Of a stretch of DNA of 32,000 bases, positions 8,175 through 30,371 are shown piece by piece. Location: the NCBI RefSeq assembly GCF_964019745.1, contig NZ_OZ026462.1, positions 60,001 through 92,000 on the forward strand. The letters are read 5' to 3'. Numbering within the stretch: position 1 is the first letter of the stretch; every line of letters starts with the position of its first letter. The notes beneath the pieces were generated by a model, which had not been told where the DNA came from, ran no database searches, and worked only from the letters and a program-made list of their open reading frames with translations. The position numbers and the translations under genes were made by a program. Source of the DNA: Candidatus Saccharimonadota bacterium (GTDB lineage Bacteria > Pseudomonadota > Gammaproteobacteria > Burkholderiales > Burkholderiaceae).

Positions 8175-8248
8175 AGTGATATAGCTTAAATGGTTAAAGC
8201 ACAGCACTCATAACGCTGAGAGTGGTGGTTCAATTCCACCTATCACTA
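8175..8248 (+). tRNA. tRNA with CAU anticodon, elongator type (tRNA-Met, or tRNA-Ile2 if lysidinylated)
   Basis: Hand-folded 74-nt cloverleaf. Acceptor agtgata/tatcact; D stem gctt/aagc; anticodon loop ctCATaa (CAT at 8209..8211). T arm ggtgg-ttcaatt-ccacc, discriminator A, no encoded CCA. The 1:72 pair is A-T, so it is not initiator-like. There is one A/C mismatch at the 31:39 position. It is the only GC-enriched patch in the intergenic DNA. Confidence 0.85.
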
Positions 8249-10091: not shown

Positions 10092-10967
10092 ATGATAACT
10101 ATACAAAAAATTATATTTAAACTTAATAAATTTTGGGAAAAATATGGATGTATATTATTACAACCATATGATATAGAAATAGGTGCCGGTACATCACATA
10201 CAGCAACTTTTTTAAAAGCTATAGGACCAGAACATTGGAAAGCTGCTTATATACAAAATTCTAGAAGACCTAAAGATGGAAAATATGGAAAAAATTTTAA
10301 TAAAATTCAAAATTATTTTCAATATCAAGTAGTTTTAAAACCTACTCCAGATAATTTTTTAGATTTATATATAAATTCATTAAAATTTTTAAAATTAAAT
10401 TTTAAAAATAATGATATTAGATTTATAGAAGATAATTGGAAAAATCCAACATTAGGTTCATGGGGGGTAGGATGGGAAGTAAAATTAAATGGTATAGAAA
10501 TAACACAAATAACATATTTTCAACAAGTTGGTTGTATAAATTGTAATCCAATATTAGGTGAAATTACCTATGGCATAGAAAGACTTGCTATGCATTTACA
10601 AAATAATAAAAATATTAACAATTTAATTTGGACAGAAATTAAAAATAAAAATAAAATTAAAAAAATATTATATAAAGAATTATTTATTCAAAATGAATAT
10701 GAATTTTCATTATTAAATTTTAATTTTTATAATAAAAAAATTTTATTAGAAACATTTAATATATATGAAAAAGAATCAAAAAGATTAATTAATTTATTAT
10801 TAATTTTTCCATCATATGAAATGATGTTAAAATCAACACATATTTTTAATTTATTAGAAGCTACTGGTACTATTTCTGCAATAGAAAAAATTAATTATAT
10901 ATATCGTATTAAAAAAATATCTTGTAAAATTGCAAAATTATATCTTTCTTTAAAAAATAAAAAATAA
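10092..10967 (+). CDS. glyQ: glycyl-tRNA synthetase alpha subunit (intact copy)
   Basis: 291 aa. FWEKYGCILLQPYDIEIGAGTSHTATFL and WGVGWEVKLNGIEITQITYFQQVG are highly conserved GlyQ blocks. Confidence 0.96.
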   Translation: MITIQKIIFKLNKFWEKYGCILLQPYDIEIGAGTSHTATFLKAIGPEHWKAAYIQNSRRPKDGKYGKNFNKIQNYFQYQVVLKPTPDNFLDLYINSLKFLKLNFKNNDIRFIEDNWKNPTLGSWGVGWEVKLNGIEITQITYFQQVGCINCNPILGEITYGIERLAMHLQNNKNINNLIWTEIKNKNKIKKILYKELFIQNEYEFSLLNFNFYNKKILLETFNIYEKESKRLINLLLIFPSYEMMLKSTHIFNLLEATGTISAIEKINYIYRIKKISCKIAKLYLSLKNKK

Positions 10968-11002
10968 ATAAATTTATATATAATATATTTTAATAATTTA
11001 AA

Positions 11003-13114
11003 ATGATAAAAAAAAATCTTTTGATAGAATTAATGACAGAAGAACTACCTCATAAAATTTTATTAAATATAGAAAATACATTTACAAAAAATATTATTTA
11101 TAAATTACAATTAGAAAATTTTATAAAAAAAAATTCATATATAGAAACATATTCAACAATACGACGAATAGGTATATATATAAAAAATGTAAAAAAAAAA
11201 TCTAAAAGTTTAATTTTTAAAAAAAAAATATTATCTAAAAATATAGCCTTTGATAAAAATAATCGTCCAACTTTTTTTTTAATAAAAAAAATTTCAATAA
11301 TTTCTAAAATTAATAATTTTTATAAAATTTCTATTAATAAAATAAAAAAAAAAAATAAAAATAATAAAAAGGAATTATTTTTTTATTATAAAAAAAAAAA
11401 TATATATTTAAAATATTTTTTAAAAAATGTATTAGAAAATTCTATAAAAAAATTATCTATTTATAGATTTATGAAATATAATAAAAAAATAAATAAAAAT
11501 TTCATAAAAATTATTGAATTTATTAGACCAATAAAAAATTTATTAATTATTTTTGGTAAAAAAATAATTTCATTAAATATTCTTCATATTAATTCAAATT
11601 CTATAACTTATGGTAATAGATTTATTAAAAATAATATTTTAAATATTAATAATGCAAATAATTATTCTAAAATATTAATAAAAGAAGGTAAAGTAATACC
11701 AAACTTTTCTCAAAGATTATTAACAATAAAAAATCTTTTATTTAAAAAAGCTAAAAATTATAAATTATCTATAAACAAAAAATTATTAAAAGAAATTACA
11801 GCTCTTATTGAATGGCCAACAGTATATAAATGTGCGTTTAATAAAGTTTTTTTAAAACTTCCAAAAAAATGTATAAAAATAATAATTCAAAATTTTCAAA
11901 AACATTTTATTTTAAAAAATAAATATAATAAAATATGTAAATATTTTCTTATAGTTTGTAACTCTAACACTAAAAATTTTAAAAATATTATTCAAGAATA
12001 TGAAAAATCAATTTTTTATATATTATCAGAAATAAAAATCTTTTTTAAAAAAGATAAAAAAACTACATTATATAAAAAAAAAAAATTATTAAAAAATATT
12101 ATTTATCATAATAAATTAGGAAATCAATTACAAAGAATAAAAAGAATAAAAAAAATATCAATAGATATTTCCAATATTATTAAATGTAATAAATATTTGC
12201 TAAAAAGAAGTTTATCTCTATTTAAAATTGATCTTACTACTAAAATAGTAAAAAAATTTCCAATTTTACAGGGAATTATAGGAAAATATTATGCAATATA
12301 TGATGGAGAAAATAAAAAAGTTGCTAAATCTATATTAGAACATTATTTACCTAAATTTTTTAATGATAAATTACCATTTTTAAAAATTTCAATAATAATT
12401 TCTATAGCAGACAAATTAGAAATTATAATTGGTATTTGGAATATAGGTTTTAAACCTAAAAATAATAAAGATCCTTTTAAAATTAAAAGAAATATAATTG
12501 GATTATTACAAATATTAATAGAAAAAAAATTATTATTATCTATACCAATGTTAATAAAACAAACTATTAATAGTTTTAAAAAAAATAATATTTTTAAGAA
12601 TCAATATATGAATATATATAATTTTATTTATAAAAAATTAAATAAATTATTATTAAAATATAATTTTAAAAAAAATGAAATAAAATCTATAATTTCTAAA
12701 AAACCAAAAATTATTGGAGATATAATTTATAAATTAAAAACATTAAAAATAATTAATTTTTCAATAAAATATAATAATTTATTTATTTCTAATAAAAGAA
12801 TTATAAATATTTTAAAAAAATTTAATAAAAATATTTATATAAATAAAAAATATTTAAAAAAAAAATATGAAATATATATTTATAATAAAATTATAAAAAC
12901 ACAAAAATTAATTAATATTAATATTAAAAAAAAAAAATATATTAATATATTTAATAAATTATTAATTTTTAATAAATATATAGAAAAATTTTTTAAAAAA
13001 ATAAAAATAAATTCAAAAAATATAAATTATAAAAATAATAGAAAAGCAATATTAAAAAATATATATAATATGTTAAATAAAATTATAAATTTAAATTTTT
13101 TAAAAAAAAATTAA
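11003..13114 (+). CDS. glyS: glycyl-tRNA synthetase beta subunit (copy 1)
   Basis: 703 aa directly after glyQ. The N-terminus LLIELMTEELP and LQGIIGKYYA are GlyS-like. Otherwise it is very diverged and Lys-rich. Confidence 0.85.
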   Translation: MIKKNLLIELMTEELPHKILLNIENTFTKNIIYKLQLENFIKKNSYIETYSTIRRIGIYIKNVKKKSKSLIFKKKILSKNIAFDKNNRPTFFLIKKISIISKINNFYKISINKIKKKNKNNKKELFFYYKKKNIYLKYFLKNVLENSIKKLSIYRFMKYNKKINKNFIKIIEFIRPIKNLLIIFGKKIISLNILHINSNSITYGNRFIKNNILNINNANNYSKILIKEGKVIPNFSQRLLTIKNLLFKKAKNYKLSINKKLLKEITALIEWPTVYKCAFNKVFLKLPKKCIKIIIQNFQKHFILKNKYNKICKYFLIVCNSNTKNFKNIIQEYEKSIFYILSEIKIFFKKDKKTTLYKKKKLLKNIIYHNKLGNQLQRIKRIKKISIDISNIIKCNKYLLKRSLSLFKIDLTTKIVKKFPILQGIIGKYYAIYDGENKKVAKSILEHYLPKFFNDKLPFLKISIIISIADKLEIIIGIWNIGFKPKNNKDPFKIKRNIIGLLQILIEKKLLLSIPMLIKQTINSFKKNNIFKNQYMNIYNFIYKKLNKLLLKYNFKKNEIKSIISKKPKIIGDIIYKLKTLKIINFSIKYNNLFISNKRIINILKKFNKNIYINKKYLKKKYEIYIYNKIIKTQKLININIKKKKYINIFNKLLIFNKYIEKFFKKIKINSKNINYKNNRKAILKNIYNMLNKIINLNFLKKN

Positions 13115-13893
13115 TTTTTTTTTTTTTTTAAAAAATTTGATAATAAAATATATTGTTTTATTGTTAACATTTCTGGTCTTAATTTAGGATTAATTTTTAA
13201 AAAAATAAAATCTTCTTTAGAAAAAAAATTACTAACACAATTAAAAATAAATTTTCTACGATTTGAAAAGGCTTTAATTAAAATTTTATTTAAAAAAAAT
13301 ATATTATATTTAATAAGTATTTTTTTTGAAATTATACGAACCATAGCTGATTTTACTTTAGGCTTAGGTTTAAAAGATTCAGGATTAATTAAAAATAATA
13401 ATTTTATTTTAAAATGAATCTGTAACATAATAGATAAACGACCAAATTTTTTATTTCCTGGTTTAGCTATCATACGATCCACAAATTCTTTTTGTAAAAT
13501 AAAATGTTGATCTATTAATAAATTGGAAAATTGTATAAGATAAAATAAAAGTAAACTAGAAATATTATATGGTAAACTTCCTATTAATCTAATTTTTTTT
13601 TTAAATCTATTAAAAAAATTTAAAAAATTAAAATTTAAAACATCTAAAAAATAAATTTTTATTTTTTTTAAAAAAAATTTTTTTTTTAAAAAATTAACTA
13701 AATTTTTGTCTATTTCTATAACATAAATTTTTTTTAAAAATTTTAATAAATATTTAGTAATATTACCATATCCAGGACCAATTTCAATAACTAAATCATC
13801 ATTTTTAAAATCTAAAAATGAAATTATTTTTTTTATAATATTTTTATCTATTAAAAAATTTTGAGAAAAATTTTTTTTTTTATTTTTTTTCAT
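13111..13893 (-). CDS. rsmA: 16S rRNA (adenine1518/1519-N6) dimethyltransferase (copy 1)
   Basis: 260 aa. NFSQNFLIDKNII and the SAM-binding VIEIGPGYGNIT are typical KsgA/RsmA motifs. Confidence 0.9.
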   Translation of the reverse strand: MKKNKKKNFSQNFLIDKNIIKKIISFLDFKNDDLVIEIGPGYGNITKYLLKFLKKIYVIEIDKNLVNFLKKKFFLKKIKIYFLDVLNFNFLNFFNRFKKKIRLIGSLPYNISSLLLFYLIQFSNLLIDQHFILQKEFVDRMIAKPGNKKFGRLSIMLQIHFKIKLLFLINPESFKPKPKVKSAMVRIISKKILIKYNIFFLNKILIKAFSNRRKFIFNCVSNFFSKEDFIFLKINPKLRPEMLTIKQYILLSNFLKKKKN

Positions 13894-14049
13894 ATTTTTT
13901 ATATATAAAATTATATTTTTACTTAAAATATTAAAATATTATTTTTATATTATTTATATAAAAAATATATAAATATTTTATATTTATAATAATTTATATT
14001 ATTATATATAATTAATAAAAAAAAAATTAAATATAATTTTTATTTAAAA

Positions 14050-15147
14050 ATGAAAAAAAAAAAAATAATATTAGGAATGTCTGGAGGTATAGATTCTTCA
14101 GTATCAGCTTGGATTTTAAAAGAACAAGGATATGAAGTAATAGGTTTATTTATGAATAATTGGAATGATAATAAAAAAAAAAATAATTTTTGTAATAATA
14201 AAAAAGATTTAATTGATGCTATAAGCATAGCAGATATTATAGGAATAAATATTAAAATAGTAAATTTTTCAAAAGAATATAAAAAATATATTTTTTCAAA
14301 TTTTATAAAAGAATATAAAAAAGGTAATACACCTAATCCAGATATAACTTGTAATTCTATAATTAAATTTAATTTTTTTTTAAATTATGCAAATTCTATC
14401 TTAAAAACTAATTTAATTGCCACAGGACATTATGCTAGAATAAAAAAAACTTTAAAAGGTAAATATAAATTATTAAAAGCTAAAGATTTAAATAAAGATC
14501 AAAGTTATTTTTTATATAGATTAAATCAAAAACAATTATCAAAAAGTATCTTTCCTATAGGAAATTTCTATAAAACAAAAATTAAAGAAATTGCTAAAAA
14601 ACTTAAATTTCCTAATGTAAACAAAAAAAATTCTACTGGGATTTGTTTTATAGGTAAAAGACCATTTAGAAAATTTCTAAATAATTATATAAATTATAAT
14701 CCTGGGCCAATAAAAACTACAAGTGGAATAACAATTTCAAAACATATAGGATTAAGTTTTTATACTATAGGTCAAAGAAAAGGTATAGGTATTGGTGGTA
14801 TAAAAAAAAATATATATATAAAAAAAAAAAATACTCCTTGGTATGTTGCTAAAAAAAATATAAAAAAAAATATTTTATATGTTGTACAAGGTCATAATCA
14901 TCCATGGTTATTATCATATAAAATTATAATATATAAAACTCATTGGATATCAGGTAAAGCACCTAAAAACTTTTCAATATTAAAAGCAAAAATTAGATAT
15001 AGACAAAAAGATTCAAAATGTATTATATATTATTATAACAAACTATATATTTTATATTTTATAGAACCTCAATGGGGTGCAGCTAAAGGACAATCAATAG
15101 TATTATATAATAAAAATATATGTTTAGGAGGAGGGATTATTAAATAA
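14050..15147 (+). CDS. mnmA: tRNA 2-thiouridine(34) synthase (copy 1)
   Basis: 365 aa. PP-loop GMSGGIDSSVSAWIL, plus TPNPDITCN, ATGHYAR and KDQSYFL motifs. Confidence 0.95.
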   Translation: MKKKKIILGMSGGIDSSVSAWILKEQGYEVIGLFMNNWNDNKKKNNFCNNKKDLIDAISIADIIGINIKIVNFSKEYKKYIFSNFIKEYKKGNTPNPDITCNSIIKFNFFLNYANSILKTNLIATGHYARIKKTLKGKYKLLKAKDLNKDQSYFLYRLNQKQLSKSIFPIGNFYKTKIKEIAKKLKFPNVNKKNSTGICFIGKRPFRKFLNNYINYNPGPIKTTSGITISKHIGLSFYTIGQRKGIGIGGIKKNIYIKKKNTPWYVAKKNIKKNILYVVQGHNHPWLLSYKIIIYKTHWISGKAPKNFSILKAKIRYRQKDSKCIIYYYNKLYILYFIEPQWGAAKGQSIVLYNKNICLGGGIIK

Positions 15148-15220
15148 TAATATACAAATTAATTATATATATAACAATATTTTTTATTTATTAAAATATA
15201 TTTTAAAAAGGAAAATTATT

Positions 15221-15685
15221 ATGAATAATTTAAAAATTATTAATTTATTAAATGATCAATTAATTAATGAATTAATAGCAAGTAATCAATATTTTTTAAA
15301 TTCTATAATTTATAAACATTTAGGTTATAAAAAAATTGCATTAAAAGAAAAAAATGAATCAAAAGAAGAATTAAAACATGCAAAAAAAATTTTAAATAGA
15401 ATATTAACTCTTGAAGGTAAACCCAATATTGAAATTTTAAATAAATTTATATTTAGTAATAATATAGAAGAAATTTTAAAAAATAATTTATATTTTGAAA
15501 AAAAAATTCAAAAAAATCTTAAAAAAAATATACTTATATGTGAAAAAAAATATGATTATATCACAAGAATACTTTTAGAAGAAATTTTATATGATTCTAT
15601 TAAACATATAAAATGGATAAAATTTGAATTAAATATTATTAATATAATTGGAATTAAAGATTACTTAAAAATACAAATTAATTAA
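15221..15685 (+). CDS. bfr: bacterioferritin-like protein (copy 1)
   Basis: 154 aa, colinear with E. coli Bfr as I recall it (INLLNDQLINELIASNQYFL; EELKHA; ILTLEGKPN; KHIKWI). An AAGGA ribosome-binding site lies upstream (about 15208). Confidence 0.8.
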   Translation: MNNLKIINLLNDQLINELIASNQYFLNSIIYKHLGYKKIALKEKNESKEELKHAKKILNRILTLEGKPNIEILNKFIFSNNIEEILKNNLYFEKKIQKNLKKNILICEKKYDYITRILLEEILYDSIKHIKWIKFELNIINIIGIKDYLKIQIN

Positions 15686-15707
15686 TTTTTAAAATTATAA
15701 AGATAAA

Positions 15708-17240
15708 TTAAATATTTCGTAAATAAGGAAATAAAATTACATCTTTTATACTAAAAGAATTTGTTAAAATCATAACTAAACGATCAATACCAATACCACA
15801 TCCAGCTGTAGGTGGCATACCATATTCTAAAGCATTAATATAATCTTTATCATAATATTTATTATTTTTAAATGTTTTTTTTTTAATATTTTTAATATTA
15901 ATATTTTTATGTTTTATAATTTGTTTTAAAAATCTTTTAGATTGTTCTTTAGAATCATTTAATTCAGAAAAACCATTAGCTATTTCACAACCATAAATAA
16001 ATAATTCAAAACGTTCAGTTATATTTTTATTAATATTTGATAAACGTGCTAAAGGAGAAACAGAAACTGGATAATCTATAATATAAGTAGGATTAATTAT
16101 TTTAGATTTTGTTGTTATATCAAATAAAATTAATTGCATTTGATATAAATCCATATCTAAATTTTTAATAATTTTTTTATTTAATTTTAAACTAATTTTT
16201 TTTAATTCTAAATATAAAAAAGAAATATTATTTAATTGAAATATAGTATAATTTGTATAATTTAATATAGCATCAATAATAGTAAATCTTTTAAAAGGTT
16301 TAGAAAAATCTATTTTTTTTTCACGATATTTTATTATATTTTTTTTATATAAAAAAAAAGTTAATTTTTTAAAAATTTTTTCAATAAAAATCATTAACCA
16401 TTTATAATCAACATAAGTTGAATAAAATTCTAACATAGTAAATTCAGGATTATGAAAAATAGATAAACCTTCATTACGAAAATTTCTATTAATTTCAAAA
16501 ATTCTATTAAAACCACCAACAATTAATTTTTTTAAAAATAATTCTGGAGAAACTCTTAAAAACATTTTCATATTTAAAGAATTATGATATGTAATAAATG
16601 GTTTAGCTGAAGCTCCTCCAGGAATTTTATGAAACATTGGTGTTTCAACTTCTAAAAAATCATTTTTTTCTAAAAATTTTCTAATAAAAGAAATAATAGA
16701 AGATCTAATTTTAAAAACTAATCTTACTTTAGGATTTATAATTAAATCTAAATATCGTTTACGATATTTAATTTCTTTATTTGATAAACCATAAAATTTA
16801 CTTGAAATTTGATGAATAGATTTATTAATAAATAAAATTTTATTAACTTTTATAGTTAATTCATTTGTATTAGTTTTAAATAAAATTCCACATACTCCAA
16901 TAATATCTCCTAAATCATAATTTTTAAAATTATTAAATCCAATTTTACCTAATATATTATAATTAATATATATTTGAATTTTTCCATTTAAAAAAGATCC
17001 TGAAAAATCACTAATTAAAGCAAAAATTGCTTTTCCAAAAATTCGTTTAGTAAATATTCTACCGGCTATAGAAACATTAATTTTTTTTTTTTCTAAAATT
17101 AATTTATCAAAATTATTATATTTTTTACATAAAAAATATGTTTTATTTTTAGGAATAAAATTATTAGGAAAATTAAAACCTTGAGAAATCATTAAATCTA
17201 ATTTTTTTTTTCTATTATTAATTTCTGAAAAAATATTCAT
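15708..17240 (-). CDS. lysS: lysyl-tRNA synthetase, class II (copy 1)
   Basis: 510 aa. YRKRYLDLI, FLEVETPMFH, RNEGLSIFHNPEFTMLEFY and GMPPTAGCGIGIDRLVMILT are class II LysRS motifs. Confidence 0.95.
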   Translation of the reverse strand: MNIFSEINNRKKKLDLMISQGFNFPNNFIPKNKTYFLCKKYNNFDKLILEKKKINVSIAGRIFTKRIFGKAIFALISDFSGSFLNGKIQIYINYNILGKIGFNNFKNYDLGDIIGVCGILFKTNTNELTIKVNKILFINKSIHQISSKFYGLSNKEIKYRKRYLDLIINPKVRLVFKIRSSIISFIRKFLEKNDFLEVETPMFHKIPGGASAKPFITYHNSLNMKMFLRVSPELFLKKLIVGGFNRIFEINRNFRNEGLSIFHNPEFTMLEFYSTYVDYKWLMIFIEKIFKKLTFFLYKKNIIKYREKKIDFSKPFKRFTIIDAILNYTNYTIFQLNNISFLYLELKKISLKLNKKIIKNLDMDLYQMQLILFDITTKSKIINPTYIIDYPVSVSPLARLSNINKNITERFELFIYGCEIANGFSELNDSKEQSKRFLKQIIKHKNINIKNIKKKTFKNNKYYDKDYINALEYGMPPTAGCGIGIDRLVMILTNSFSIKDVILFPYLRNI

Positions 17241-17297
17241 TTTTTTATAAATTAAATAAATTTTTAAAATTATATTAAAAATAAATATAAATATATT

Positions 17298-18037
17298 TTA
17301 TACTTTTAATTTTAAAAATTCATAAATAAAATTATCTATTTTACCATCTAAAGTACCTTTTATATCATTAGTTTGATAATTAGTTCTTAAATCTTTAATA
17401 AATGATTTATCTAAAATATAAGATCTAATTTGTTGCCCCCAACTTATATTAGATTTCAAATTTTCAATTTTTTTACGTTTAATTAATTGTTTATTTTTTT
17501 CAAAATTATATAATTTATTTTTTAACATATTCCATGCAGTAACTTTATTACGATATTGACTTCGACTATTTTGACATTTAACTACTATTCCAGTAGGAAT
17601 ATGAGTTAAACGAACAGCAGAATCAGTTTTATTAACATGTTGTCCACCAGCACCTGAAGATTTATAAGTATCAATTTTTACACTAGAAATATCAATTGTA
17701 ATTTTTATTAAATTTTCATAATCAGGATATACAAATAAACTAGCAAAAGAAGTATGTCTATTTTTTGAAAAATTAAATGGAGATTTTCTTACTAAACGAT
17801 GAATACCTGTTTCAGTTTTTAAAAAACCAAATGCATATTTACCTTTTACTTTAATTGTTGCTAATCTTATACCATTTTTTTCACCATAAGATTTATGCAT
17901 AATTTCAGTTTTAAATTTTTTTCTCTCACAATATTTTAAATATTGACGTAATAATATAAAAGACCAATCTTCTGCATCTATACCTCCAGCACCAGCTTTT
18001 ATATCTATAAAACAATTTTTTTTATCAATAGAATTAT
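17298..18037 (-). pseudogene. prfB: peptide chain release factor 2, 5'-truncated duplicate fragment (C-terminal ~246 codons)
   Basis: Identical to 25186..25925 of the full gene. It ends abruptly at the duplication junction. The first in-frame ATG is at 17900 (the 200-aa ORF in the track, which contains the SPF and GGQ motifs). Confidence 0.88.
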
Positions 18038-18855
18038 GTATATTATTACAACCATATGATATAGAAATAGGTGCCGGTACATCACATACAGCAACTTTTT
18101 TAAAAGCTATAGGACCAGAACATTGGAAAGCTGCTTATATACAAAATTCTAGAAGACCTAAAGATGGAAAATATGGAAAAAATTTTAATAAAATTCAAAA
18201 TTATTTTCAATATCAAGTAGTTTTAAAACCTACTCCAGATAATTTTTTAGATTTATATATAAATTCATTAAAATTTTTAAAATTAAATTTTAAAAATAAT
18301 GATATTAGATTTATAGAAGATAATTGGAAAAATCCAACATTAGGTTCATGGGGGGTAGGATGGGAAGTAAAATTAAATGGTATAGAAATAACACAAATAA
18401 CATATTTTCAACAAGTTGGTTGTATAAATTGTAATCCAATATTAGGTGAAATTACCTATGGCATAGAAAGACTTGCTATGCATTTACAAAATAATAAAAA
18501 TATTAACAATTTAATTTGGACAGAAATTAAAAATAAAAATAAAATTAAAAAAATATTATATAAAGAATTATTTATTCAAAATGAATATGAATTTTCATTA
18601 TTAAATTTTAATTTTTATAATAAAAAAATTTTATTAGAAACATTTAATATATATGAAAAAGAATCAAAAAGATTAATTAATTTATTATTAATTTTTCCAT
18701 CATATGAAATGATGTTAAAATCAACACATATTTTTAATTTATTAGAAGCTACTGGTACTATTTCTGCAATAGAAAAAATTAATTATATATATCGTATTAA
18801 AAAAATATCTTGTAAAATTGCAAAATTATATCTTTCTTTAAAAAATAAAAAATAA
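18036..18855 (+). pseudogene. glyQ: glyQ duplicate lacking the first ~18 codons and the start codon
   Basis: Identical to 10148..10967. The frame is open back to 17947 but has no ATG before 18478 (my own translation). The ORF-track entry 18478..18855 is only the tail of this fragment. Confidence 0.88.
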
Positions 18856-18890
18856 ATAAATTTATATATAATATATTTTAATAATTTAAA

Positions 18891-21002
18891 ATGATAAAAA
18901 AAAATCTTTTGATAGAATTAATGACAGAAGAACTACCTCATAAAATTTTATTAAATATAGAAAATACATTTACAAAAAATATTATTTATAAATTACAATT
19001 AGAAAATTTTATAAAAAAAAATTCATATATAGAAACATATTCAACAATACGACGAATAGGTATATATATAAAAAATGTAAAAAAAAAATCTAAAAGTTTA
19101 ATTTTTAAAAAAAAAATATTATCTAAAAATATAGCCTTTGATAAAAATAATCGTCCAACTTTTTTTTTAATAAAAAAAATTTCAATAATTTCTAAAATTA
19201 ATAATTTTTATAAAATTTCTATTAATAAAATAAAAAAAAAAAATAAAAATAATAAAAAGGAATTATTTTTTTATTATAAAAAAAAAAATATATATTTAAA
19301 ATATTTTTTAAAAAATGTATTAGAAAATTCTATAAAAAAATTATCTATTTATAGATTTATGAAATATAATAAAAAAATAAATAAAAATTTCATAAAAATT
19401 ATTGAATTTATTAGACCAATAAAAAATTTATTAATTATTTTTGGTAAAAAAATAATTTCATTAAATATTCTTCATATTAATTCAAATTCTATAACTTATG
19501 GTAATAGATTTATTAAAAATAATATTTTAAATATTAATAATGCAAATAATTATTCTAAAATATTAATAAAAGAAGGTAAAGTAATACCAAACTTTTCTCA
19601 AAGATTATTAACAATAAAAAATCTTTTATTTAAAAAAGCTAAAAATTATAAATTATCTATAAACAAAAAATTATTAAAAGAAATTACAGCTCTTATTGAA
19701 TGGCCAACAGTATATAAATGTGCGTTTAATAAAGTTTTTTTAAAACTTCCAAAAAAATGTATAAAAATAATAATTCAAAATTTTCAAAAACATTTTATTT
19801 TAAAAAATAAATATAATAAAATATGTAAATATTTTCTTATAGTTTGTAACTCTAACACTAAAAATTTTAAAAATATTATTCAAGAATATGAAAAATCAAT
19901 TTTTTATATATTATCAGAAATAAAAATCTTTTTTAAAAAAGATAAAAAAACTACATTATATAAAAAAAAAAAATTATTAAAAAATATTATTTATCATAAT
20001 AAATTAGGAAATCAATTACAAAGAATAAAAAGAATAAAAAAAATATCAATAGATATTTCCAATATTATTAAATGTAATAAATATTTGCTAAAAAGAAGTT
20101 TATCTCTATTTAAAATTGATCTTACTACTAAAATAGTAAAAAAATTTCCAATTTTACAGGGAATTATAGGAAAATATTATGCAATATATGATGGAGAAAA
20201 TAAAAAAGTTGCTAAATCTATATTAGAACATTATTTACCTAAATTTTTTAATGATAAATTACCATTTTTAAAAATTTCAATAATAATTTCTATAGCAGAC
20301 AAATTAGAAATTATAATTGGTATTTGGAATATAGGTTTTAAACCTAAAAATAATAAAGATCCTTTTAAAATTAAAAGAAATATAATTGGATTATTACAAA
20401 TATTAATAGAAAAAAAATTATTATTATCTATACCAATGTTAATAAAACAAACTATTAATAGTTTTAAAAAAAATAATATTTTTAAGAATCAATATATGAA
20501 TATATATAATTTTATTTATAAAAAATTAAATAAATTATTATTAAAATATAATTTTAAAAAAAATGAAATAAAATCTATAATTTCTAAAAAACCAAAAATT
20601 ATTGGAGATATAATTTATAAATTAAAAACATTAAAAATAATTAATTTTTCAATAAAATATAATAATTTATTTATTTCTAATAAAAGAATTATAAATATTT
20701 TAAAAAAATTTAATAAAAATATTTATATAAATAAAAAATATTTAAAAAAAAAATATGAAATATATATTTATAATAAAATTATAAAAACACAAAAATTAAT
20801 TAATATTAATATTAAAAAAAAAAAATATATTAATATATTTAATAAATTATTAATTTTTAATAAATATATAGAAAAATTTTTTAAAAAAATAAAAATAAAT
20901 TCAAAAAATATAAATTATAAAAATAATAGAAAAGCAATATTAAAAAATATATATAATATGTTAAATAAAATTATAAATTTAAATTTTTTAAAAAAAAATT
21001 AA
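18891..21002 (+). CDS. glyS: glycyl-tRNA synthetase beta subunit (copy 2, identical)
   Basis: The 703-aa protein is identical to the product of 11003..13114 at an offset of 7888. Confidence 0.85.
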   Translation: MIKKNLLIELMTEELPHKILLNIENTFTKNIIYKLQLENFIKKNSYIETYSTIRRIGIYIKNVKKKSKSLIFKKKILSKNIAFDKNNRPTFFLIKKISIISKINNFYKISINKIKKKNKNNKKELFFYYKKKNIYLKYFLKNVLENSIKKLSIYRFMKYNKKINKNFIKIIEFIRPIKNLLIIFGKKIISLNILHINSNSITYGNRFIKNNILNINNANNYSKILIKEGKVIPNFSQRLLTIKNLLFKKAKNYKLSINKKLLKEITALIEWPTVYKCAFNKVFLKLPKKCIKIIIQNFQKHFILKNKYNKICKYFLIVCNSNTKNFKNIIQEYEKSIFYILSEIKIFFKKDKKTTLYKKKKLLKNIIYHNKLGNQLQRIKRIKKISIDISNIIKCNKYLLKRSLSLFKIDLTTKIVKKFPILQGIIGKYYAIYDGENKKVAKSILEHYLPKFFNDKLPFLKISIIISIADKLEIIIGIWNIGFKPKNNKDPFKIKRNIIGLLQILIEKKLLLSIPMLIKQTINSFKKNNIFKNQYMNIYNFIYKKLNKLLLKYNFKKNEIKSIISKKPKIIGDIIYKLKTLKIINFSIKYNNLFISNKRIINILKKFNKNIYINKKYLKKKYEIYIYNKIIKTQKLININIKKKKYINIFNKLLIFNKYIEKFFKKIKINSKNINYKNNRKAILKNIYNMLNKIINLNFLKKN

Positions 21003-21781
21003 TTTTTTTTTTTTTTTAAAAAATTTGATAATAAAATATATTGTTTTATTGTTAACATTTCTGGTCTTAATTTAGGATTAATTTTTAAAAAAATAAAATC
21101 TTCTTTAGAAAAAAAATTACTAACACAATTAAAAATAAATTTTCTACGATTTGAAAAGGCTTTAATTAAAATTTTATTTAAAAAAAATATATTATATTTA
21201 ATAAGTATTTTTTTTGAAATTATACGAACCATAGCTGATTTTACTTTAGGCTTAGGTTTAAAAGATTCAGGATTAATTAAAAATAATAATTTTATTTTAA
21301 AATGAATCTGTAACATAATAGATAAACGACCAAATTTTTTATTTCCTGGTTTAGCTATCATACGATCCACAAATTCTTTTTGTAAAATAAAATGTTGATC
21401 TATTAATAAATTGGAAAATTGTATAAGATAAAATAAAAGTAAACTAGAAATATTATATGGTAAACTTCCTATTAATCTAATTTTTTTTTTAAATCTATTA
21501 AAAAAATTTAAAAAATTAAAATTTAAAACATCTAAAAAATAAATTTTTATTTTTTTTAAAAAAAATTTTTTTTTTAAAAAATTAACTAAATTTTTGTCTA
21601 TTTCTATAACATAAATTTTTTTTAAAAATTTTAATAAATATTTAGTAATATTACCATATCCAGGACCAATTTCAATAACTAAATCATCATTTTTAAAATC
21701 TAAAAATGAAATTATTTTTTTTATAATATTTTTATCTATTAAAAAATTTTGAGAAAAATTTTTTTTTTTATTTTTTTTCAT
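20999..21781 (-). CDS. rsmA: 16S rRNA dimethyladenosine transferase (copy 2, identical)
   Basis: The protein is identical to the product of 13111..13893. Confidence 0.9.
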   Translation of the reverse strand: MKKNKKKNFSQNFLIDKNIIKKIISFLDFKNDDLVIEIGPGYGNITKYLLKFLKKIYVIEIDKNLVNFLKKKFFLKKIKIYFLDVLNFNFLNFFNRFKKKIRLIGSLPYNISSLLLFYLIQFSNLLIDQHFILQKEFVDRMIAKPGNKKFGRLSIMLQIHFKIKLLFLINPESFKPKPKVKSAMVRIISKKILIKYNIFFLNKILIKAFSNRRKFIFNCVSNFFSKEDFIFLKINPKLRPEMLTIKQYILLSNFLKKKKN

Positions 21782-21937
21782 ATTTTTTATATATAAAATT
21801 ATATTTTTACTTAAAATATTAAAATATTATTTTTATATTATTTATATAAAAAATATATAAATATTTTATATTTATAATAATTTATATTATTATATATAAT
21901 TAATAAAAAAAAAATTAAATATAATTTTTATTTAAAA

Positions 21938-23035
21938 ATGAAAAAAAAAAAAATAATATTAGGAATGTCTGGAGGTATAGATTCTTCAGTATCAGCTTGG
22001 ATTTTAAAAGAACAAGGATATGAAGTAATAGGTTTATTTATGAATAATTGGAATGATAATAAAAAAAAAAATAATTTTTGTAATAATAAAAAAGATTTAA
22101 TTGATGCTATAAGCATAGCAGATATTATAGGAATAAATATTAAAATAGTAAATTTTTCAAAAGAATATAAAAAATATATTTTTTCAAATTTTATAAAAGA
22201 ATATAAAAAAGGTAATACACCTAATCCAGATATAACTTGTAATTCTATAATTAAATTTAATTTTTTTTTAAATTATGCAAATTCTATCTTAAAAACTAAT
22301 TTAATTGCCACAGGACATTATGCTAGAATAAAAAAAACTTTAAAAGGTAAATATAAATTATTAAAAGCTAAAGATTTAAATAAAGATCAAAGTTATTTTT
22401 TATATAGATTAAATCAAAAACAATTATCAAAAAGTATCTTTCCTATAGGAAATTTCTATAAAACAAAAATTAAAGAAATTGCTAAAAAACTTAAATTTCC
22501 TAATGTAAACAAAAAAAATTCTACTGGGATTTGTTTTATAGGTAAAAGACCATTTAGAAAATTTCTAAATAATTATATAAATTATAATCCTGGGCCAATA
22601 AAAACTACAAGTGGAATAACAATTTCAAAACATATAGGATTAAGTTTTTATACTATAGGTCAAAGAAAAGGTATAGGTATTGGTGGTATAAAAAAAAATA
22701 TATATATAAAAAAAAAAAATACTCCTTGGTATGTTGCTAAAAAAAATATAAAAAAAAATATTTTATATGTTGTACAAGGTCATAATCATCCATGGTTATT
22801 ATCATATAAAATTATAATATATAAAACTCATTGGATATCAGGTAAAGCACCTAAAAACTTTTCAATATTAAAAGCAAAAATTAGATATAGACAAAAAGAT
22901 TCAAAATGTATTATATATTATTATAACAAACTATATATTTTATATTTTATAGAACCTCAATGGGGTGCAGCTAAAGGACAATCAATAGTATTATATAATA
23001 AAAATATATGTTTAGGAGGAGGGATTATTAAATAA
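21938..23035 (+). CDS. mnmA: tRNA 2-thiouridine(34) synthase (copy 2, identical)
   Basis: The protein is identical to the product of 14050..15147. Confidence 0.95.
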   Translation: MKKKKIILGMSGGIDSSVSAWILKEQGYEVIGLFMNNWNDNKKKNNFCNNKKDLIDAISIADIIGINIKIVNFSKEYKKYIFSNFIKEYKKGNTPNPDITCNSIIKFNFFLNYANSILKTNLIATGHYARIKKTLKGKYKLLKAKDLNKDQSYFLYRLNQKQLSKSIFPIGNFYKTKIKEIAKKLKFPNVNKKNSTGICFIGKRPFRKFLNNYINYNPGPIKTTSGITISKHIGLSFYTIGQRKGIGIGGIKKNIYIKKKNTPWYVAKKNIKKNILYVVQGHNHPWLLSYKIIIYKTHWISGKAPKNFSILKAKIRYRQKDSKCIIYYYNKLYILYFIEPQWGAAKGQSIVLYNKNICLGGGIIK

Positions 23036-23108
23036 TAATATACAAATTAATTATATATATAACAATATTTTTTATTTATTAAAATATATTTTAAAAAGGA
23101 AAATTATT

Positions 23109-23573
23109 ATGAATAATTTAAAAATTATTAATTTATTAAATGATCAATTAATTAATGAATTAATAGCAAGTAATCAATATTTTTTAAATTCTATAATTTA
23201 TAAACATTTAGGTTATAAAAAAATTGCATTAAAAGAAAAAAATGAATCAAAAGAAGAATTAAAACATGCAAAAAAAATTTTAAATAGAATATTAACTCTT
23301 GAAGGTAAACCCAATATTGAAATTTTAAATAAATTTATATTTAGTAATAATATAGAAGAAATTTTAAAAAATAATTTATATTTTGAAAAAAAAATTCAAA
23401 AAAATCTTAAAAAAAATATACTTATATGTGAAAAAAAATATGATTATATCACAAGAATACTTTTAGAAGAAATTTTATATGATTCTATTAAACATATAAA
23501 ATGGATAAAATTTGAATTAAATATTATTAATATAATTGGAATTAAAGATTACTTAAAAATACAAATTAATTAA
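23109..23573 (+). CDS. bfr: bacterioferritin-like protein (copy 2, identical)
   Basis: The protein is identical to the product of 15221..15685. Confidence 0.8.
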   Translation: MNNLKIINLLNDQLINELIASNQYFLNSIIYKHLGYKKIALKEKNESKEELKHAKKILNRILTLEGKPNIEILNKFIFSNNIEEILKNNLYFEKKIQKNLKKNILICEKKYDYITRILLEEILYDSIKHIKWIKFELNIINIIGIKDYLKIQIN

Positions 23574-23595
23574 TTTTTAAAATTATAAAGATAAA

Positions 23596-25128
23596 TTAAA
23601 TATTTCGTAAATAAGGAAATAAAATTACATCTTTTATACTAAAAGAATTTGTTAAAATCATAACTAAACGATCAATACCAATACCACATCCAGCTGTAGG
23701 TGGCATACCATATTCTAAAGCATTAATATAATCTTTATCATAATATTTATTATTTTTAAATGTTTTTTTTTTAATATTTTTAATATTAATATTTTTATGT
23801 TTTATAATTTGTTTTAAAAATCTTTTAGATTGTTCTTTAGAATCATTTAATTCAGAAAAACCATTAGCTATTTCACAACCATAAATAAATAATTCAAAAC
23901 GTTCAGTTATATTTTTATTAATATTTGATAAACGTGCTAAAGGAGAAACAGAAACTGGATAATCTATAATATAAGTAGGATTAATTATTTTAGATTTTGT
24001 TGTTATATCAAATAAAATTAATTGCATTTGATATAAATCCATATCTAAATTTTTAATAATTTTTTTATTTAATTTTAAACTAATTTTTTTTAATTCTAAA
24101 TATAAAAAAGAAATATTATTTAATTGAAATATAGTATAATTTGTATAATTTAATATAGCATCAATAATAGTAAATCTTTTAAAAGGTTTAGAAAAATCTA
24201 TTTTTTTTTCACGATATTTTATTATATTTTTTTTATATAAAAAAAAAGTTAATTTTTTAAAAATTTTTTCAATAAAAATCATTAACCATTTATAATCAAC
24301 ATAAGTTGAATAAAATTCTAACATAGTAAATTCAGGATTATGAAAAATAGATAAACCTTCATTACGAAAATTTCTATTAATTTCAAAAATTCTATTAAAA
24401 CCACCAACAATTAATTTTTTTAAAAATAATTCTGGAGAAACTCTTAAAAACATTTTCATATTTAAAGAATTATGATATGTAATAAATGGTTTAGCTGAAG
24501 CTCCTCCAGGAATTTTATGAAACATTGGTGTTTCAACTTCTAAAAAATCATTTTTTTCTAAAAATTTTCTAATAAAAGAAATAATAGAAGATCTAATTTT
24601 AAAAACTAATCTTACTTTAGGATTTATAATTAAATCTAAATATCGTTTACGATATTTAATTTCTTTATTTGATAAACCATAAAATTTACTTGAAATTTGA
24701 TGAATAGATTTATTAATAAATAAAATTTTATTAACTTTTATAGTTAATTCATTTGTATTAGTTTTAAATAAAATTCCACATACTCCAATAATATCTCCTA
24801 AATCATAATTTTTAAAATTATTAAATCCAATTTTACCTAATATATTATAATTAATATATATTTGAATTTTTCCATTTAAAAAAGATCCTGAAAAATCACT
24901 AATTAAAGCAAAAATTGCTTTTCCAAAAATTCGTTTAGTAAATATTCTACCGGCTATAGAAACATTAATTTTTTTTTTTTCTAAAATTAATTTATCAAAA
25001 TTATTATATTTTTTACATAAAAAATATGTTTTATTTTTAGGAATAAAATTATTAGGAAAATTAAAACCTTGAGAAATCATTAAATCTAATTTTTTTTTTC
25101 TATTATTAATTTCTGAAAAAATATTCAT
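23596..25128 (-). CDS. lysS: lysyl-tRNA synthetase, class II (copy 2, identical)
   Basis: The protein is identical to the product of 15708..17240. This copy keeps the native prfB-lysS arrangement. Confidence 0.95.
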   Translation of the reverse strand: MNIFSEINNRKKKLDLMISQGFNFPNNFIPKNKTYFLCKKYNNFDKLILEKKKINVSIAGRIFTKRIFGKAIFALISDFSGSFLNGKIQIYINYNILGKIGFNNFKNYDLGDIIGVCGILFKTNTNELTIKVNKILFINKSIHQISSKFYGLSNKEIKYRKRYLDLIINPKVRLVFKIRSSIISFIRKFLEKNDFLEVETPMFHKIPGGASAKPFITYHNSLNMKMFLRVSPELFLKKLIVGGFNRIFEINRNFRNEGLSIFHNPEFTMLEFYSTYVDYKWLMIFIEKIFKKLTFFLYKKNIIKYREKKIDFSKPFKRFTIIDAILNYTNYTIFQLNNISFLYLELKKISLKLNKKIIKNLDMDLYQMQLILFDITTKSKIINPTYIIDYPVSVSPLARLSNINKNITERFELFIYGCEIANGFSELNDSKEQSKRFLKQIIKHKNINIKNIKKKTFKNNKYYDKDYINALEYGMPPTAGCGIGIDRLVMILTNSFSIKDVILFPYLRNI

Positions 25129-25185
25129 TTTTTTATAAATTAAATAAATTTTTAAAATTATATTAAAAATAAATATAAATATATT

Positions 25186-26292
25186 TTATACTTTTAATTT
25201 TAAAAATTCATAAATAAAATTATCTATTTTACCATCTAAAGTACCTTTTATATCATTAGTTTGATAATTAGTTCTTAAATCTTTAATAAATGATTTATCT
25301 AAAATATAAGATCTAATTTGTTGCCCCCAACTTATATTAGATTTCAAATTTTCAATTTTTTTACGTTTAATTAATTGTTTATTTTTTTCAAAATTATATA
25401 ATTTATTTTTTAACATATTCCATGCAGTAACTTTATTACGATATTGACTTCGACTATTTTGACATTTAACTACTATTCCAGTAGGAATATGAGTTAAACG
25501 AACAGCAGAATCAGTTTTATTAACATGTTGTCCACCAGCACCTGAAGATTTATAAGTATCAATTTTTACACTAGAAATATCAATTGTAATTTTTATTAAA
25601 TTTTCATAATCAGGATATACAAATAAACTAGCAAAAGAAGTATGTCTATTTTTTGAAAAATTAAATGGAGATTTTCTTACTAAACGATGAATACCTGTTT
25701 CAGTTTTTAAAAAACCAAATGCATATTTACCTTTTACTTTAATTGTTGCTAATCTTATACCATTTTTTTCACCATAAGATTTATGCATAATTTCAGTTTT
25801 AAATTTTTTTCTCTCACAATATTTTAAATATTGACGTAATAATATAAAAGACCAATCTTCTGCATCTATACCTCCAGCACCAGCTTTTATATCTATAAAA
25901 CAATTTTTTTTATCAATAGAATTATTAAAAATTTTTTTAAATTCTATTAATATAATTTTTTTTTTTATTTTTTTTATTTCTAATAAAATAAAATCTAATA
26001 AAGAAAAATTTTTTTCTAAAAAAGTAAGTAAAATTAATTCTTTTATATTTTTTATTTCTAAATTAATTAATTTAATTTTATTTAAAATTTTTTCAATTTT
26101 TTTTTTTTTATTTAAAAAAAAAATTTTTTTTTTATATTGATTATAAATTAAAGGTTTTAATAATTCATTATTAATTTTTTTAATTTTTTTTTTTTTTTTT
26201 TTAATATTTAAAATATTACATAATTTTACAAAAAGTAATAATATCTTTTTAAAAGATATTTTTAATATTTCTTTTTTTTTTAAAAATATCAT
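25186..26292 (-). CDS. prfB: peptide chain release factor 2 (full length, single ORF)
   Basis: 368 aa. The SPF tripeptide (RKSPFNF) specifies RF2; the GGQ motif (SSGAGGQHVNKTDSAVRLTHIPTG) is present. There is no internal in-frame stop or +1 frameshift site. Confidence 0.92.
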   Translation of the reverse strand: MIFLKKKEILKISFKKILLLFVKLCNILNIKKKKKKIKKINNELLKPLIYNQYKKKIFFLNKKKKIEKILNKIKLINLEIKNIKELILLTFLEKNFSLLDFILLEIKKIKKKIILIEFKKIFNNSIDKKNCFIDIKAGAGGIDAEDWSFILLRQYLKYCERKKFKTEIMHKSYGEKNGIRLATIKVKGKYAFGFLKTETGIHRLVRKSPFNFSKNRHTSFASLFVYPDYENLIKITIDISSVKIDTYKSSGAGGQHVNKTDSAVRLTHIPTGIVVKCQNSRSQYRNKVTAWNMLKNKLYNFEKNKQLIKRKKIENLKSNISWGQQIRSYILDKSFIKDLRTNYQTNDIKGTLDGKIDNFIYEFLKLKV

Positions 26293-26500
26293 AAAAATAA
26301 AAATTGTATAAATTTTATTTAAATAAATTTTTTTAATATATATTAATATTTTTTAAAAATATATTTTATAAATATTTATATATTTAATAAATATATATTT
26401 AATATATTAATTAATAATTAATATTTTTTTATAAATATAATTATAAAAATTAATATTTTTATTATAAATAAATATTTATTAAATTTTTAATAAATAAAAT

Positions 26501-26680
26501 TATTTAATATTATTTAATATTATTTAATATTATTTAATATTATTTAATATTATTTAATATTATTTAATATTATTTAATATTATTTAATATTATTTAATAT
26601 TATTTAATATTATTTAATATTATTTAATATTATTTAATATTATTTAATATTATTTAATATTATTTAATATTATTTAATAT
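26501..26680. repeat. perfect 10-bp microsatellite (tatttaatat) x 18
   Basis: Counted directly: 18 uninterrupted identical units over 180 bp, with degenerate unit-like sequence on both flanks. Confidence 0.97.
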
Positions 26681-27318
26681 TAATAAATCAAAAATTATAT
26701 TCTTTGAATAATAAAGACTACTAATTATAGCTATCATATCTACTCCAAATTTAAATAAAGGTAAAAAATTTTTTTTATTTATACCACCAATTGCTACAAT
26801 TGGAACAAATATTTTTTTTTTTATTAAAGATATTAACTTTAAATTTGTTTTAAATAAATATTTTTTAATGTTTGAAAAATAAAACCCTCCTAAAGAAATA
26901 TAATTTGCACCATTAAGAAAATTTTTCTTAGCAAAATATAATGAATTATAACAAGAAGAACCAATAATTTTTTTATTTCCTAAAATATATCTAGCTTCAA
27001 AAATAGAAAAATCTTTATAACCTAAATGAACACCATCAGCATTAATCTGAATACATAAATCAATATCATTATTAATTATTAAAGGAATATTATTATTATG
27101 ACATAATTTTAATAAAAATATTGCTTGTTTTTTTTGAATATCTTTTTTAGAAATTTTATTTCTATATTGAATTAATGAACATTATTTCTATATTGAATTA
27201 ATGAACAACCACCTTTAATTATTTTTTTAGTTATTAAAATTAATTTTTTTGTATCATTCCAATCAGGAGTAATAATATATAAACCTTTATATATATATTT
27301 ATTTTTTAAATTGTTCAT
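26660..27318 (-). pseudogene. thiE: thiamine-phosphate synthase disrupted by a 26-bp tandem duplication
   Basis: My own codon-by-codon translation starts at ATG 27318..27316: MNNLKNKYIYKGLYIITPD...GGCSLIQYRNNVH, then a stop at 27172..27174. Removing one 26-bp unit gives an uninterrupted 210-aa ThiE. That product has NADGVHLG, IGSSCYN, GANYISLGGFYFS, VPIVAIGGIN and GVDMIAIISSLY motifs. The stop is at 26660..26662. Confidence 0.88.
27156..27207. repeat. perfect 26-bp tandem duplication (ttatttctatattgaattaatgaaca x 2) inside thiE
   Basis: Units 27156..27181 and 27182..27207 are identical when read directly from the sequence. Confidence 0.95.
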
Positions 27319-27334
27319 AACAATAAAAATAAAT

Positions 27335-28129
27335 TTAAAAAAAATTAAATTTTGGAGAAGAAGAAAAAGCTATATTTTTTTTATTCATTCTACCAGCTAA
27401 AAAAGATTGACGTCCTGATTGCACAGCTTTTTTCATAGCATTTGCCATAATTATAGGATTTTTAGCTTTAGCAATAGCTGTATTCATTAATACTCCATCA
27501 CATCCAATTTCCATAGCTATTACTGCATCTGAAGCAGTACCAATACCTGCATCTACTATAATTGGTATATTTGACTCTTTAACTATTAATGATAAATTAA
27601 ATTTATTTAAAATCCCCATACCTGAACCTATCATAGATGCTAAAGGCATTATTGCTATAACACCCATTTTTTCTAAAATTTTTGCTTGTATAGAATCATC
27701 AGTACAATAAACCATTACTTTAAAATTATCTTTTATTAAAATTTCAACAGCTTTAAAAGTTTCTTGCATATTTGGTAATAATGTTTTTTTATCTCCTAAA
27801 ATTTCTAATTTTATTAAATTATTACCTTCTAATAATTCACGTGATAATTTTGAAACATAAACAGCTTCTTCTGCATTATAACAATTAGCTGTATTAGGTA
27901 AAATAGTACAAGATTCTTTATATAACATTTTTAATAAATTTGAAGAAGCTCTTTTTTCAAATAAATTTAATCTTTTAATAGAAATAGTAATTATATTTGC
28001 TTTACTAATTTTAATAACATCACGTAATTCAAAAAAACTTCTATATTTACCAGTACCTATTAAAAGCCTAGATTTATATTTTTTATTACATAAAATAAAA
28101 GAATTATTTTTAAAATTTTTTTTTAACAT
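27335..28129 (-). CDS. thiG: thiazole synthase
   Basis: 264 aa. LLIGTGKY, the KLEILGD-type block, VMVYCTDD, AIMPLASMIGSGMGI and IIVDAGIGTASDA are ThiG motifs. Confidence 0.92.
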   Translation of the reverse strand: MLKKNFKNNSFILCNKKYKSRLLIGTGKYRSFFELRDVIKISKANIITISIKRLNLFEKRASSNLLKMLYKESCTILPNTANCYNAEEAVYVSKLSRELLEGNNLIKLEILGDKKTLLPNMQETFKAVEILIKDNFKVMVYCTDDSIQAKILEKMGVIAIMPLASMIGSGMGILNKFNLSLIVKESNIPIIVDAGIGTASDAVIAMEIGCDGVLMNTAIAKAKNPIIMANAMKKAVQSGRQSFLAGRMNKKNIAFSSSPKFNFF

Positions 28130-28173
28130 TTAAATGTGTAAATTATAAATTTTAAATAAATATTTTTTAAAAA

Positions 28174-28374
28174 CTATCCACCACCTACAGCTGTAATAAT
28201 ATCTACACAATCACCTTCATTTAATAAATACCTAGACCAATTACAAATTTGTATAATAATTTTATTAACAGAAACAGCAATAAGATATTTATTTAAATTA
28301 AGTTTAATTATTAATTCATTTAAAAAAAAAATATTTTTTAAAAAAAAAAATTTACCATTTAATTTAATTTTCAT
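28174..28374 (-). CDS. thiS: sulfur-carrier protein ThiS
   Basis: 66 aa with a C-terminal ...GDCVDIITAVGGG (Gly-Gly end). It lies between thiC and thiG. Confidence 0.78.
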   Translation of the reverse strand: MKIKLNGKFFFLKNIFFLNELIIKLNLNKYLIAVSVNKIIIQICNWSRYLLNEGDCVDIITAVGGG

Positions 28375-28415
28375 AAATTAATATAATATATTTACATTTT
28401 TATAATAAATTTAAA

Positions 28416-30224
<1,809 letters not shown>

Positions 30225-30371
30225 TTAAAATAAAAAATTTTATTTATTTTAAAAAAAAAATTATTTATAATATCATTGATAATGATATTTTTTTTAAAAA
30301 AAAAAAAAAATATTAATTTTCAATATATTTTTTAAAAAAACAAAAATAATTAAAAATTATTAAAATTTAAA

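Follow-up and report, generated by a model that had tools for sequence, protein, structure and literature searches.

A perfect 10-bp tandem array between thiE and prfB in a small AT-rich symbiont-type genome, a probable product of replication slippage

Why should 184 bp of uninterrupted 10-bp repeats stand between a gene for thiamine-phosphate synthase and the gene for release factor 2, and does this array serve any function there? The question arose from a sequence-only reading of the DNA, which ascribed the array to replication slippage and also suggested that it might be intrinsically curved and might affect the prfB-lysS promoter. The window analysed here is a stretch of 32,000 nucleotides, corresponding to C1:60001-92000 of a genome that consists of a single contig of 336,619 bp with 16.9% GC. 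The array lies among the neighbouring genes thiC-thiS-thiG-thiE-prfB-lysS, all of which were identified by Pfam on the minus strand, with thiC, thiS and thiG (27335..30218) upstream of thiE on the same strand. In window coordinates, the features are as follows:

30218..28416, minus strand: thiC (Pfam ThiC_Rad_SAM)
28374..28174, minus strand: thiS (Pfam ThiS)
28129..27335, minus strand: thiG (Pfam ThiG)
26660..27318, minus strand: thiE, thiamine-phosphate synthase, frameshifted (Pfam TMP-TENI, E 7.8e-39)
27156..27207, no strand: perfect tandem duplication of 26 bp x 2 that breaks the thiE frame (TRF, 100% matches)
26499..26682, no strand: tandem array of period 10, 18.4 copies (lag-10 scan, TRF and reading of the sequence)
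26293..26498, no strand: spacer from the array to prfB, 206 bp, 99.5% A+T (base composition; shuffles)
25186..26292, minus strand: prfB, release factor 2, a single 368-aa ORF with the SPF motif (Pfam PCRF and RF-1; relatives at no more than 58% identity)
23596..25128, minus strand: lysS, downstream of prfB (Pfam tRNA-synt_2 and OB-fold anticodon-binding domain)

The anatomy of the array was established directly. A lag-10 scan finds a perfect period of 10 over 184 bp (26499..26682), that is, 18.4 copies at 100% identity of a unit that reads TATTTAATAT on the plus strand, or ATATTAAATA when read in the direction of thiE and prfB. Eighteen whole units of TATTTAATAT occupy 26501..26680, just as the sequence-only reading had reported, and the perfect tract runs slightly further. 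The distance of 209 to 388 bp upstream of the prfB ATG (26292) given in that reading is likewise correct for the 18 whole units; the full 184-bp array ends 207 bp upstream of the prfB start. Also borne out was the remark that TAA is met quickly in every frame on both strands: all six frames of the array reach TAA within 9 codons, and the longest open runs, always ended by TAA, measure 9 codons (plus strand) and 7 codons (minus strand). The array is bounded sharply, and within the single contig the sequence on either side of it is unique. With hardly any letters but A and T in this DNA, each lag-10 match can be assigned a chance of about one half, and at this rate the 174 consecutive matches would have a probability of roughly 0.5^174. 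TRF additionally returned a wider row (26332..26682, 35 copies, 78% matches), which might be read as a perfect core followed by decayed older copies. We reject this candidate: the left flank (26293..26498) aligns to the unit with a score of 43, compared with 29.9 +/- 7.9 for its dinucleotide shuffles, 23 of 300 of which reached that score. Because the flank fits the unit no better than its own shuffles do, we treat the array as a perfect core without recognisable decayed copies.

At its other edge the array enters thiE. The minus-strand frame ends ...GAT TTA TTA ATA TTA AAT AAT ATT AAA TAA, translated as ...D L L I L N N I K *, and the array writes the six last sense codons (ILNNIK) together with the TAA (26662..26660), all within 26660..26680. 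The overlap of the array with the thiE stop thus stands as first described, but the claim that the last seven codons lie inside it must be corrected to six full sense codons, since the preceding Leu codon (26683..26681) has only two of its three bases in the array. This overlap has no consequence for the protein. The TMP-TENI domain ends at residue 155 of the 173-residue ThiE translation (P0001), and solved ThiE chains align up to residues 157-159, ahead of the array-written residues. The tail beyond the last aligned residue comprises 14 to 16 aa here vs 19 to 23 aa in the solved chains, which is too little to tell whether the array has truncated the protein. Furthermore, the reading frame is set on the thiE side, which is fixed, before it reaches the array, and consequently any tract of at least 24 bp (about 2.4 copies) writes the identical ...ILNNIK* tail and stop; a change in copy number cannot alter the ThiE tail. 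In any case, thiE is frameshifted upstream. The 26-bp duplication shifts the frame to a stop at 27174..27172, where a 48-aa ORF ends; with one 26-bp unit skipped, ThiE has a frame of 210 codons that matches TMP-TENI in full. The ORF that truly runs into the array is only 25 codons long (26737..26660). The genes thiC, thiS and thiG remain open, unlike thiE. The relatives G005, G006 and G017 have no thiE and thus offer no orthologous spacer for comparison.

What the array most resembles is the rest of its own genome. Across the contig we counted 36 perfect tandem tracts that reach 40 bp or more. They amount to 5.4 kb in total, and their periods vary between 6 and 61 bp; the array is the 9th longest of these, and 30 have no overlap with any ORF of at least 70 aa. 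This company is a matter of direct count. The median intergenic gap is 54 bp, and the thiE-prfB spacer measures 367 bp, half of which is the array. Near-identical head-to-tail copies, many arrays in one genome and a mostly non-coding placement are among the features by which an endosymbiont slippage repeat is recognised, and all three were found here. The array is another instance of this known kind and is ordinary within its own genome. The genome stands alone in its genus in the genome set, within a family whose genomes range from about 200 kb in symbionts to as much as 7 Mb in free-living members. One relative in the same family, G006 (L023-L033; 208,564 bp, 13.5% GC), which we take from its size and GC to be the related spittlebug symbiont Zinderia insecticola CARI, contains zero perfect tandem tracts of at least 40 bp. 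Because this genome of still lower GC has none, the arrays are lineage-specific and not a by-product of AT-richness alone. Searches for the same locus elsewhere yielded 0 matches to a thiE-flank 31-mer in metagenomes, and a scan of genome contigs for other assemblies or strains, which did not include the record of the window itself, returned distant RF2 genes only.

Repair functions that could act on slipped repeats also went undetected. Six-frame Pfam searches of the contig detected no MutS_V, MutL, RecA, DNA_pol_A (Pol I) or 5'-3' exonuclease domains, and the best tblastn match of a MutS from a same-family genome to this genome had an E-value of 4.6; two DnaQ-like matches (RNase_T) and UvrD-like genes were found in the same six-frame searches. 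Counting against the slippage reading is the estimated completeness of the genome, only 87.66%, though it is one contig. By equal searches, tblastn for MutS included, MutS, MutL and Pol I were not found in G006 either. Since G006 shares the tested losses and has no arrays, repair loss is permissive at most, and the loss of one repair gene as the specific cause is unsupported. If G006 is indeed Zinderia insecticola CARI, the failure to find MutS and MutL in it conflicts with the report that Zinderia keeps mutS, mutL and mutH (PMC7952229).

We therefore favour, with good but incomplete confidence, the view that the array is a young, neutral or nearly neutral, non-functional short tandem repeat that arose by replication slippage. 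On this account the array would have grown at the 3' end of thiE, through slippage or template switching, against the background of a very small, 83% A+T, symbiont-type genome in whose spacers short tandem arrays have multiplied. Slipped intermediates within the perfect repeat would go uncorrected, and any change in length would need to be RecA-independent, because MutS, MutL and RecA were not found. The array would be tolerated owing to its non-coding site, to the same ThiE tail and TAA being written from about 2.4 copies up, and to the prior frameshift in thiE. The perfect, sharply bounded core, the company of 36 tracts and two nearby perfect tandem duplications, of 26 bp and 7,888 bp, all fit slippage. 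From these features we infer the mechanism, the youth of the array and a present-day polymorphism in its length. The slippage origin proposed in the sequence-only reading is thus well supported by the sharp-edged core, the genome-wide company and the undetected repair genes, but its functional part fared less well, as described below.

Comparable behaviour is documented in other insect symbionts. In Portiera BT, from Bemisia tabaci, microsatellites have proliferated in spacers, a 6.1-kb block is tandemly repeated and replication and repair genes have been lost, unlike in Portiera TV (Sloan and Moran 2013, PMC3673631). The two cases share a tiny obligate-symbiont genome, enlarged repeat-filled spacers, large perfect tandem duplications, missing replication and repair genes and a close relative that is repeat-free (Portiera TV there, G006 here). 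They differ in that unit length in Portiera BT peaks sharply at 7 bp and dnaQ is gone there, whereas the tracts here have periods anywhere from 6 to 61 bp and two DnaQ-like matches are kept; in addition, length variation was shown with data in Portiera, whereas here we infer it. A further parallel comes from two co-symbionts of sap-feeding Auchenorrhyncha, in which reads of one sample differ in unit number: from 8 to 11 in a 6-bp microsatellite of Sulcia, and from 7 to 53 in a 72/79-bp array of Nasuia (Waneka et al. 2021, PMC7952229). These too are AT-only tandem arrays, though with other unit sizes and at other loci, and the read-level variation seen in them is the behaviour we would predict for the thiE-prfB array. 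Repeat-associated indels have also been found to account for about 90% of the density of intrahost indels (PMC13345377).

Against this background, the functional proposal deserves scrutiny: curved DNA or a distal upstream element might tune the prfB-lysS promoter, with copy number setting its strength. The period of the array is near the helical repeat, and the array lies directly upstream of the best promoter-like matches, one of which has a -35-like hexamer at 26490, only 9 bp from the array edge. Classical curvature, however, is a property of A-tracts of 4 to 6 bp that lack TpA steps and are phased at about 10.5 bp. The array resembles such phased A-tract or UP-element-like DNA in being AT-rich, in its near-10-bp period and in its position upstream of a gene, but its unit carries three TpA steps and a single 4-bp ATTT tract, and the curvature predicted for the array does not exceed that of the genome background. 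To compute the path of the helix axis we used two dinucleotide wedge parameter sets (Bolshoy 1991, De Santis 1990). With the first, the ratio of end-to-end distance to contour length is 0.934 for the array vs 0.358 for a phased A6 control, and with the second it is 0.943 vs 0.437. In the Bolshoy model the array bends by about 5.9 degrees per turn, compared with 29 for phased A6. Among 184-bp windows of the genome, 74% (Bolshoy) and 57% (De Santis) are more compact than the array, and among windows with GC below 6% the corresponding shares are 66% and 40%. The unit has a summed twist of 345 to 352 degrees per 10 bp, which would make the bend direction drift by 8 to 15 degrees per unit. The array is thus not predicted to be unusually curved and falls in the mid-range of the genome distribution. 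The suggestion of intrinsic curvature did not survive this in-silico check, in which both wedge models placed the array at or below the median curvature of its genome, and we reject phased A-tract curved DNA as a description of a repeat with one ATTT per unit, with TpA steps and with a curvature within the genome background.

The suggested effect on the prfB-lysS promoter is not borne out by the promoter search either. Within the array, a consensus scan of the prfB strand found nothing promoter-like; the two best matches on that strand lie outside it (26490..26461 and 26468..26440), each agreeing at 10 of 12 positions. The 22 promoter-like matches in total compare with 14.9 +/- 4.6 in shuffles, a count that is not clearly above expectation and is weak evidence in such DNA. 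Promoter-like matches do occur inside the array on the antisense strand only, at 9 of 12 positions and recurring by periodicity, and these were set aside. The nearest known mechanism for a functional role is that of the Neisseria meningitidis nadA gene, where a TAAA repeat tract is a distal part of the promoter (Metruccio et al. 2009, PMC2791445) and shows that such a tract can tune transcription. In both cases a simple-sequence tract lies upstream of a promoter, and its length could shift the spacing of upstream elements. The nadA tract, however, changes helical phase through 4-bp units, is flanked by regulator-binding sites and serves a surface adhesin, whereas the array here would nearly keep phase with its 10-bp units, lies beside a housekeeping target and has no mapped promoter or known flanking operator. 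If the site next to the array is real, the array lies upstream of its -35, and therefore changes by whole units would leave the -35/-10 spacing and, roughly, the helical face unaltered, unlike in known spacing switches. The other three clean 10-bp arrays of the genome, moreover, have no common position relative to genes. Taking the evidence together, we regard tuning of the prfB-lysS promoter by the array as unlikely. A contingency locus was also rejected, given that the tract lies outside the promoter-like hexamer pairs of the prfB strand, that the ThiE tail is independent of copy number, and that the neighbours thiE, prfB and lysS have housekeeping roles and not surface, restriction-modification or variable functions.

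One observation sits less comfortably with slippage from random seeding, namely the near-identity of the units in all four clean AT-only 10-bp arrays of the genome:

C1:41244-41299: 10-bp array, unit TATTTAAAAT, 5.6 copies
C1:86499-86682: 10-bp array between thiE and prfB, unit TATTTAATAT, 18.4 copies
C1:111824-111920: 10-bp array, unit TATTAAATAT, 9.7 copies
C1:143215-143316: 10-bp array, unit TATTTAAAAT, 10.2 copies

These units are at most one substitution apart and two are identical, and the degenerate period-10 rows lie at a distance of 2 to 3 from the unit. Such agreement might mean that the four arrays belong to a single family (TATTTAAWAT-like) whose cause is sequence-specific, as arrays of protein-binding sites or through spread from one source. 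The chance that three random units would all fall so close is about 0.004 to 0.006, in a test that is post hoc and rests on a small sample. Against a common cause, 10-mers of the unit are no commoner than expected in the rest of the genome (26th to 73rd percentile), neither RecA nor mobile-element machinery was found in the genome, and we found no gene context common to the four arrays, whose flanks differ as well. We consider a sequence-specific family very improbable; the near-identity most likely means that some short duplications are more prone than others to arise or expand.

A further set of explanations invokes secondary structure: an RNA hairpin of A-U pairs might end or process the thi transcript before prfB, or a DNA hairpin or cruciform might drive instability or stall replication. 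Because the unit consists of TT plus the 8-bp palindrome TAATATTA, a single strand of the array folds into one long interrupted hairpin, with a DNA fold energy of -31.5 kcal/mol (z = -6.7 vs shuffles) and an RNA fold energy, flanks included, of -54.1 kcal/mol (z = -5.2 vs shuffles). A different picture emerges when the array is set against all 99 AT-only 10-mer arrays of equal length, among which it ranks 37th (median -21.6, minimum -79.7 kcal/mol). The z-scores therefore reflect periodicity only, and a special hairpin or cruciform potential, striking against shuffles, is gone against this null of 99 arrays. The stem also lacks any G-C pair, the scan for terminators returned no G+C-rich stem and T-run site, and no Rfam family matches at the array. 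With hairpin stability that is average for its class, an intrinsic terminator or structured RNA was rejected, and we give the action of secondary structure in either form scant credence. The search upstream of thiC (30219-30371) likewise yielded no TPP riboswitch at the Rfam gathering score. The sole Rfam match in the whole window is a tRNA (8175..8248).

It might also be argued that the array is real but that assembly or consensus calling gave it a false copy number or a false perfection. The genome is represented by a single assembly, and a nearby perfect 7,888-bp duplication poses the same question. A tract of 184 bp is, however, far below long-read length, its unique flanks lie within one contig, and dozens of arrays with many periods were resolved in that same contig; we accordingly hold an artefact to be highly unlikely. 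As for the larger duplication, it is a perfect head-to-tail tandem (10148..18035 = 18036..25923, with a 2-bp overlap at the junction; region 10148-25925). Its start falls within the gene 10092..10967 and its end, 575 bp from the array, within prfB, of which a truncated copy remains at 17298..18035. The only N run of the contig (C1:190967-191585, 619 bases), either a gap or withheld sequence, directly follows a 16-bp tandem array (190798..190966).

Taken alone, the array matters little, as one slippage repeat in a genome full of them. It may nevertheless have value as a marker: a perfect 184-bp array with unique flanks is easily sized by PCR or long reads and, alongside the 26-bp thiE duplication 470 bp away, could gauge within-host heteroplasmy and symbiont bottlenecks. 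The more interesting question is why 36 perfect arrays occur here and none in G006, which is smaller, more AT-rich and missing the same repair genes. A bolder idea, to which we attach very little probability, is that the array, perhaps together with the three near-identical TATTTAAWAT-like arrays, is a cis element whose length would set prfB-lysS transcription, via a promoter at its edge or read-through from the thi genes. If this were true, the dosage of release factor 2 could drift or switch within symbiont populations, which would be notable given that the small same-family genome G006 gave no RF2-grade match and that Zinderia insecticola CARI, which we take it to be, reads UGA as tryptophan.

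Several observations concern release factors more generally. The prfB gene has one open frame in which no programmed +1 frameshift site is apparent; the gene for RF1 is likewise intact (C1:335267-336316). Among the stop codons of 271 ORFs of at least 100 aa, TAA accounts for 259, TGA for 10 and TAG for 2. The search of G006 gave an RF1-like match only, which contains one in-frame TGA.

Finally, origin repeats of the DUE or iteron-like kind were considered and rejected, the array (C1:86,499) being far from the turning points of the GC skew. The cumulative skew has its minimum at C1:125,502 and its maximum at C1:317,571. By this skew the thi-prfB-lysS genes would be co-directional with replication, and the minimum lies a few kb from a 13-kb repeat island at about 131-144 kb.
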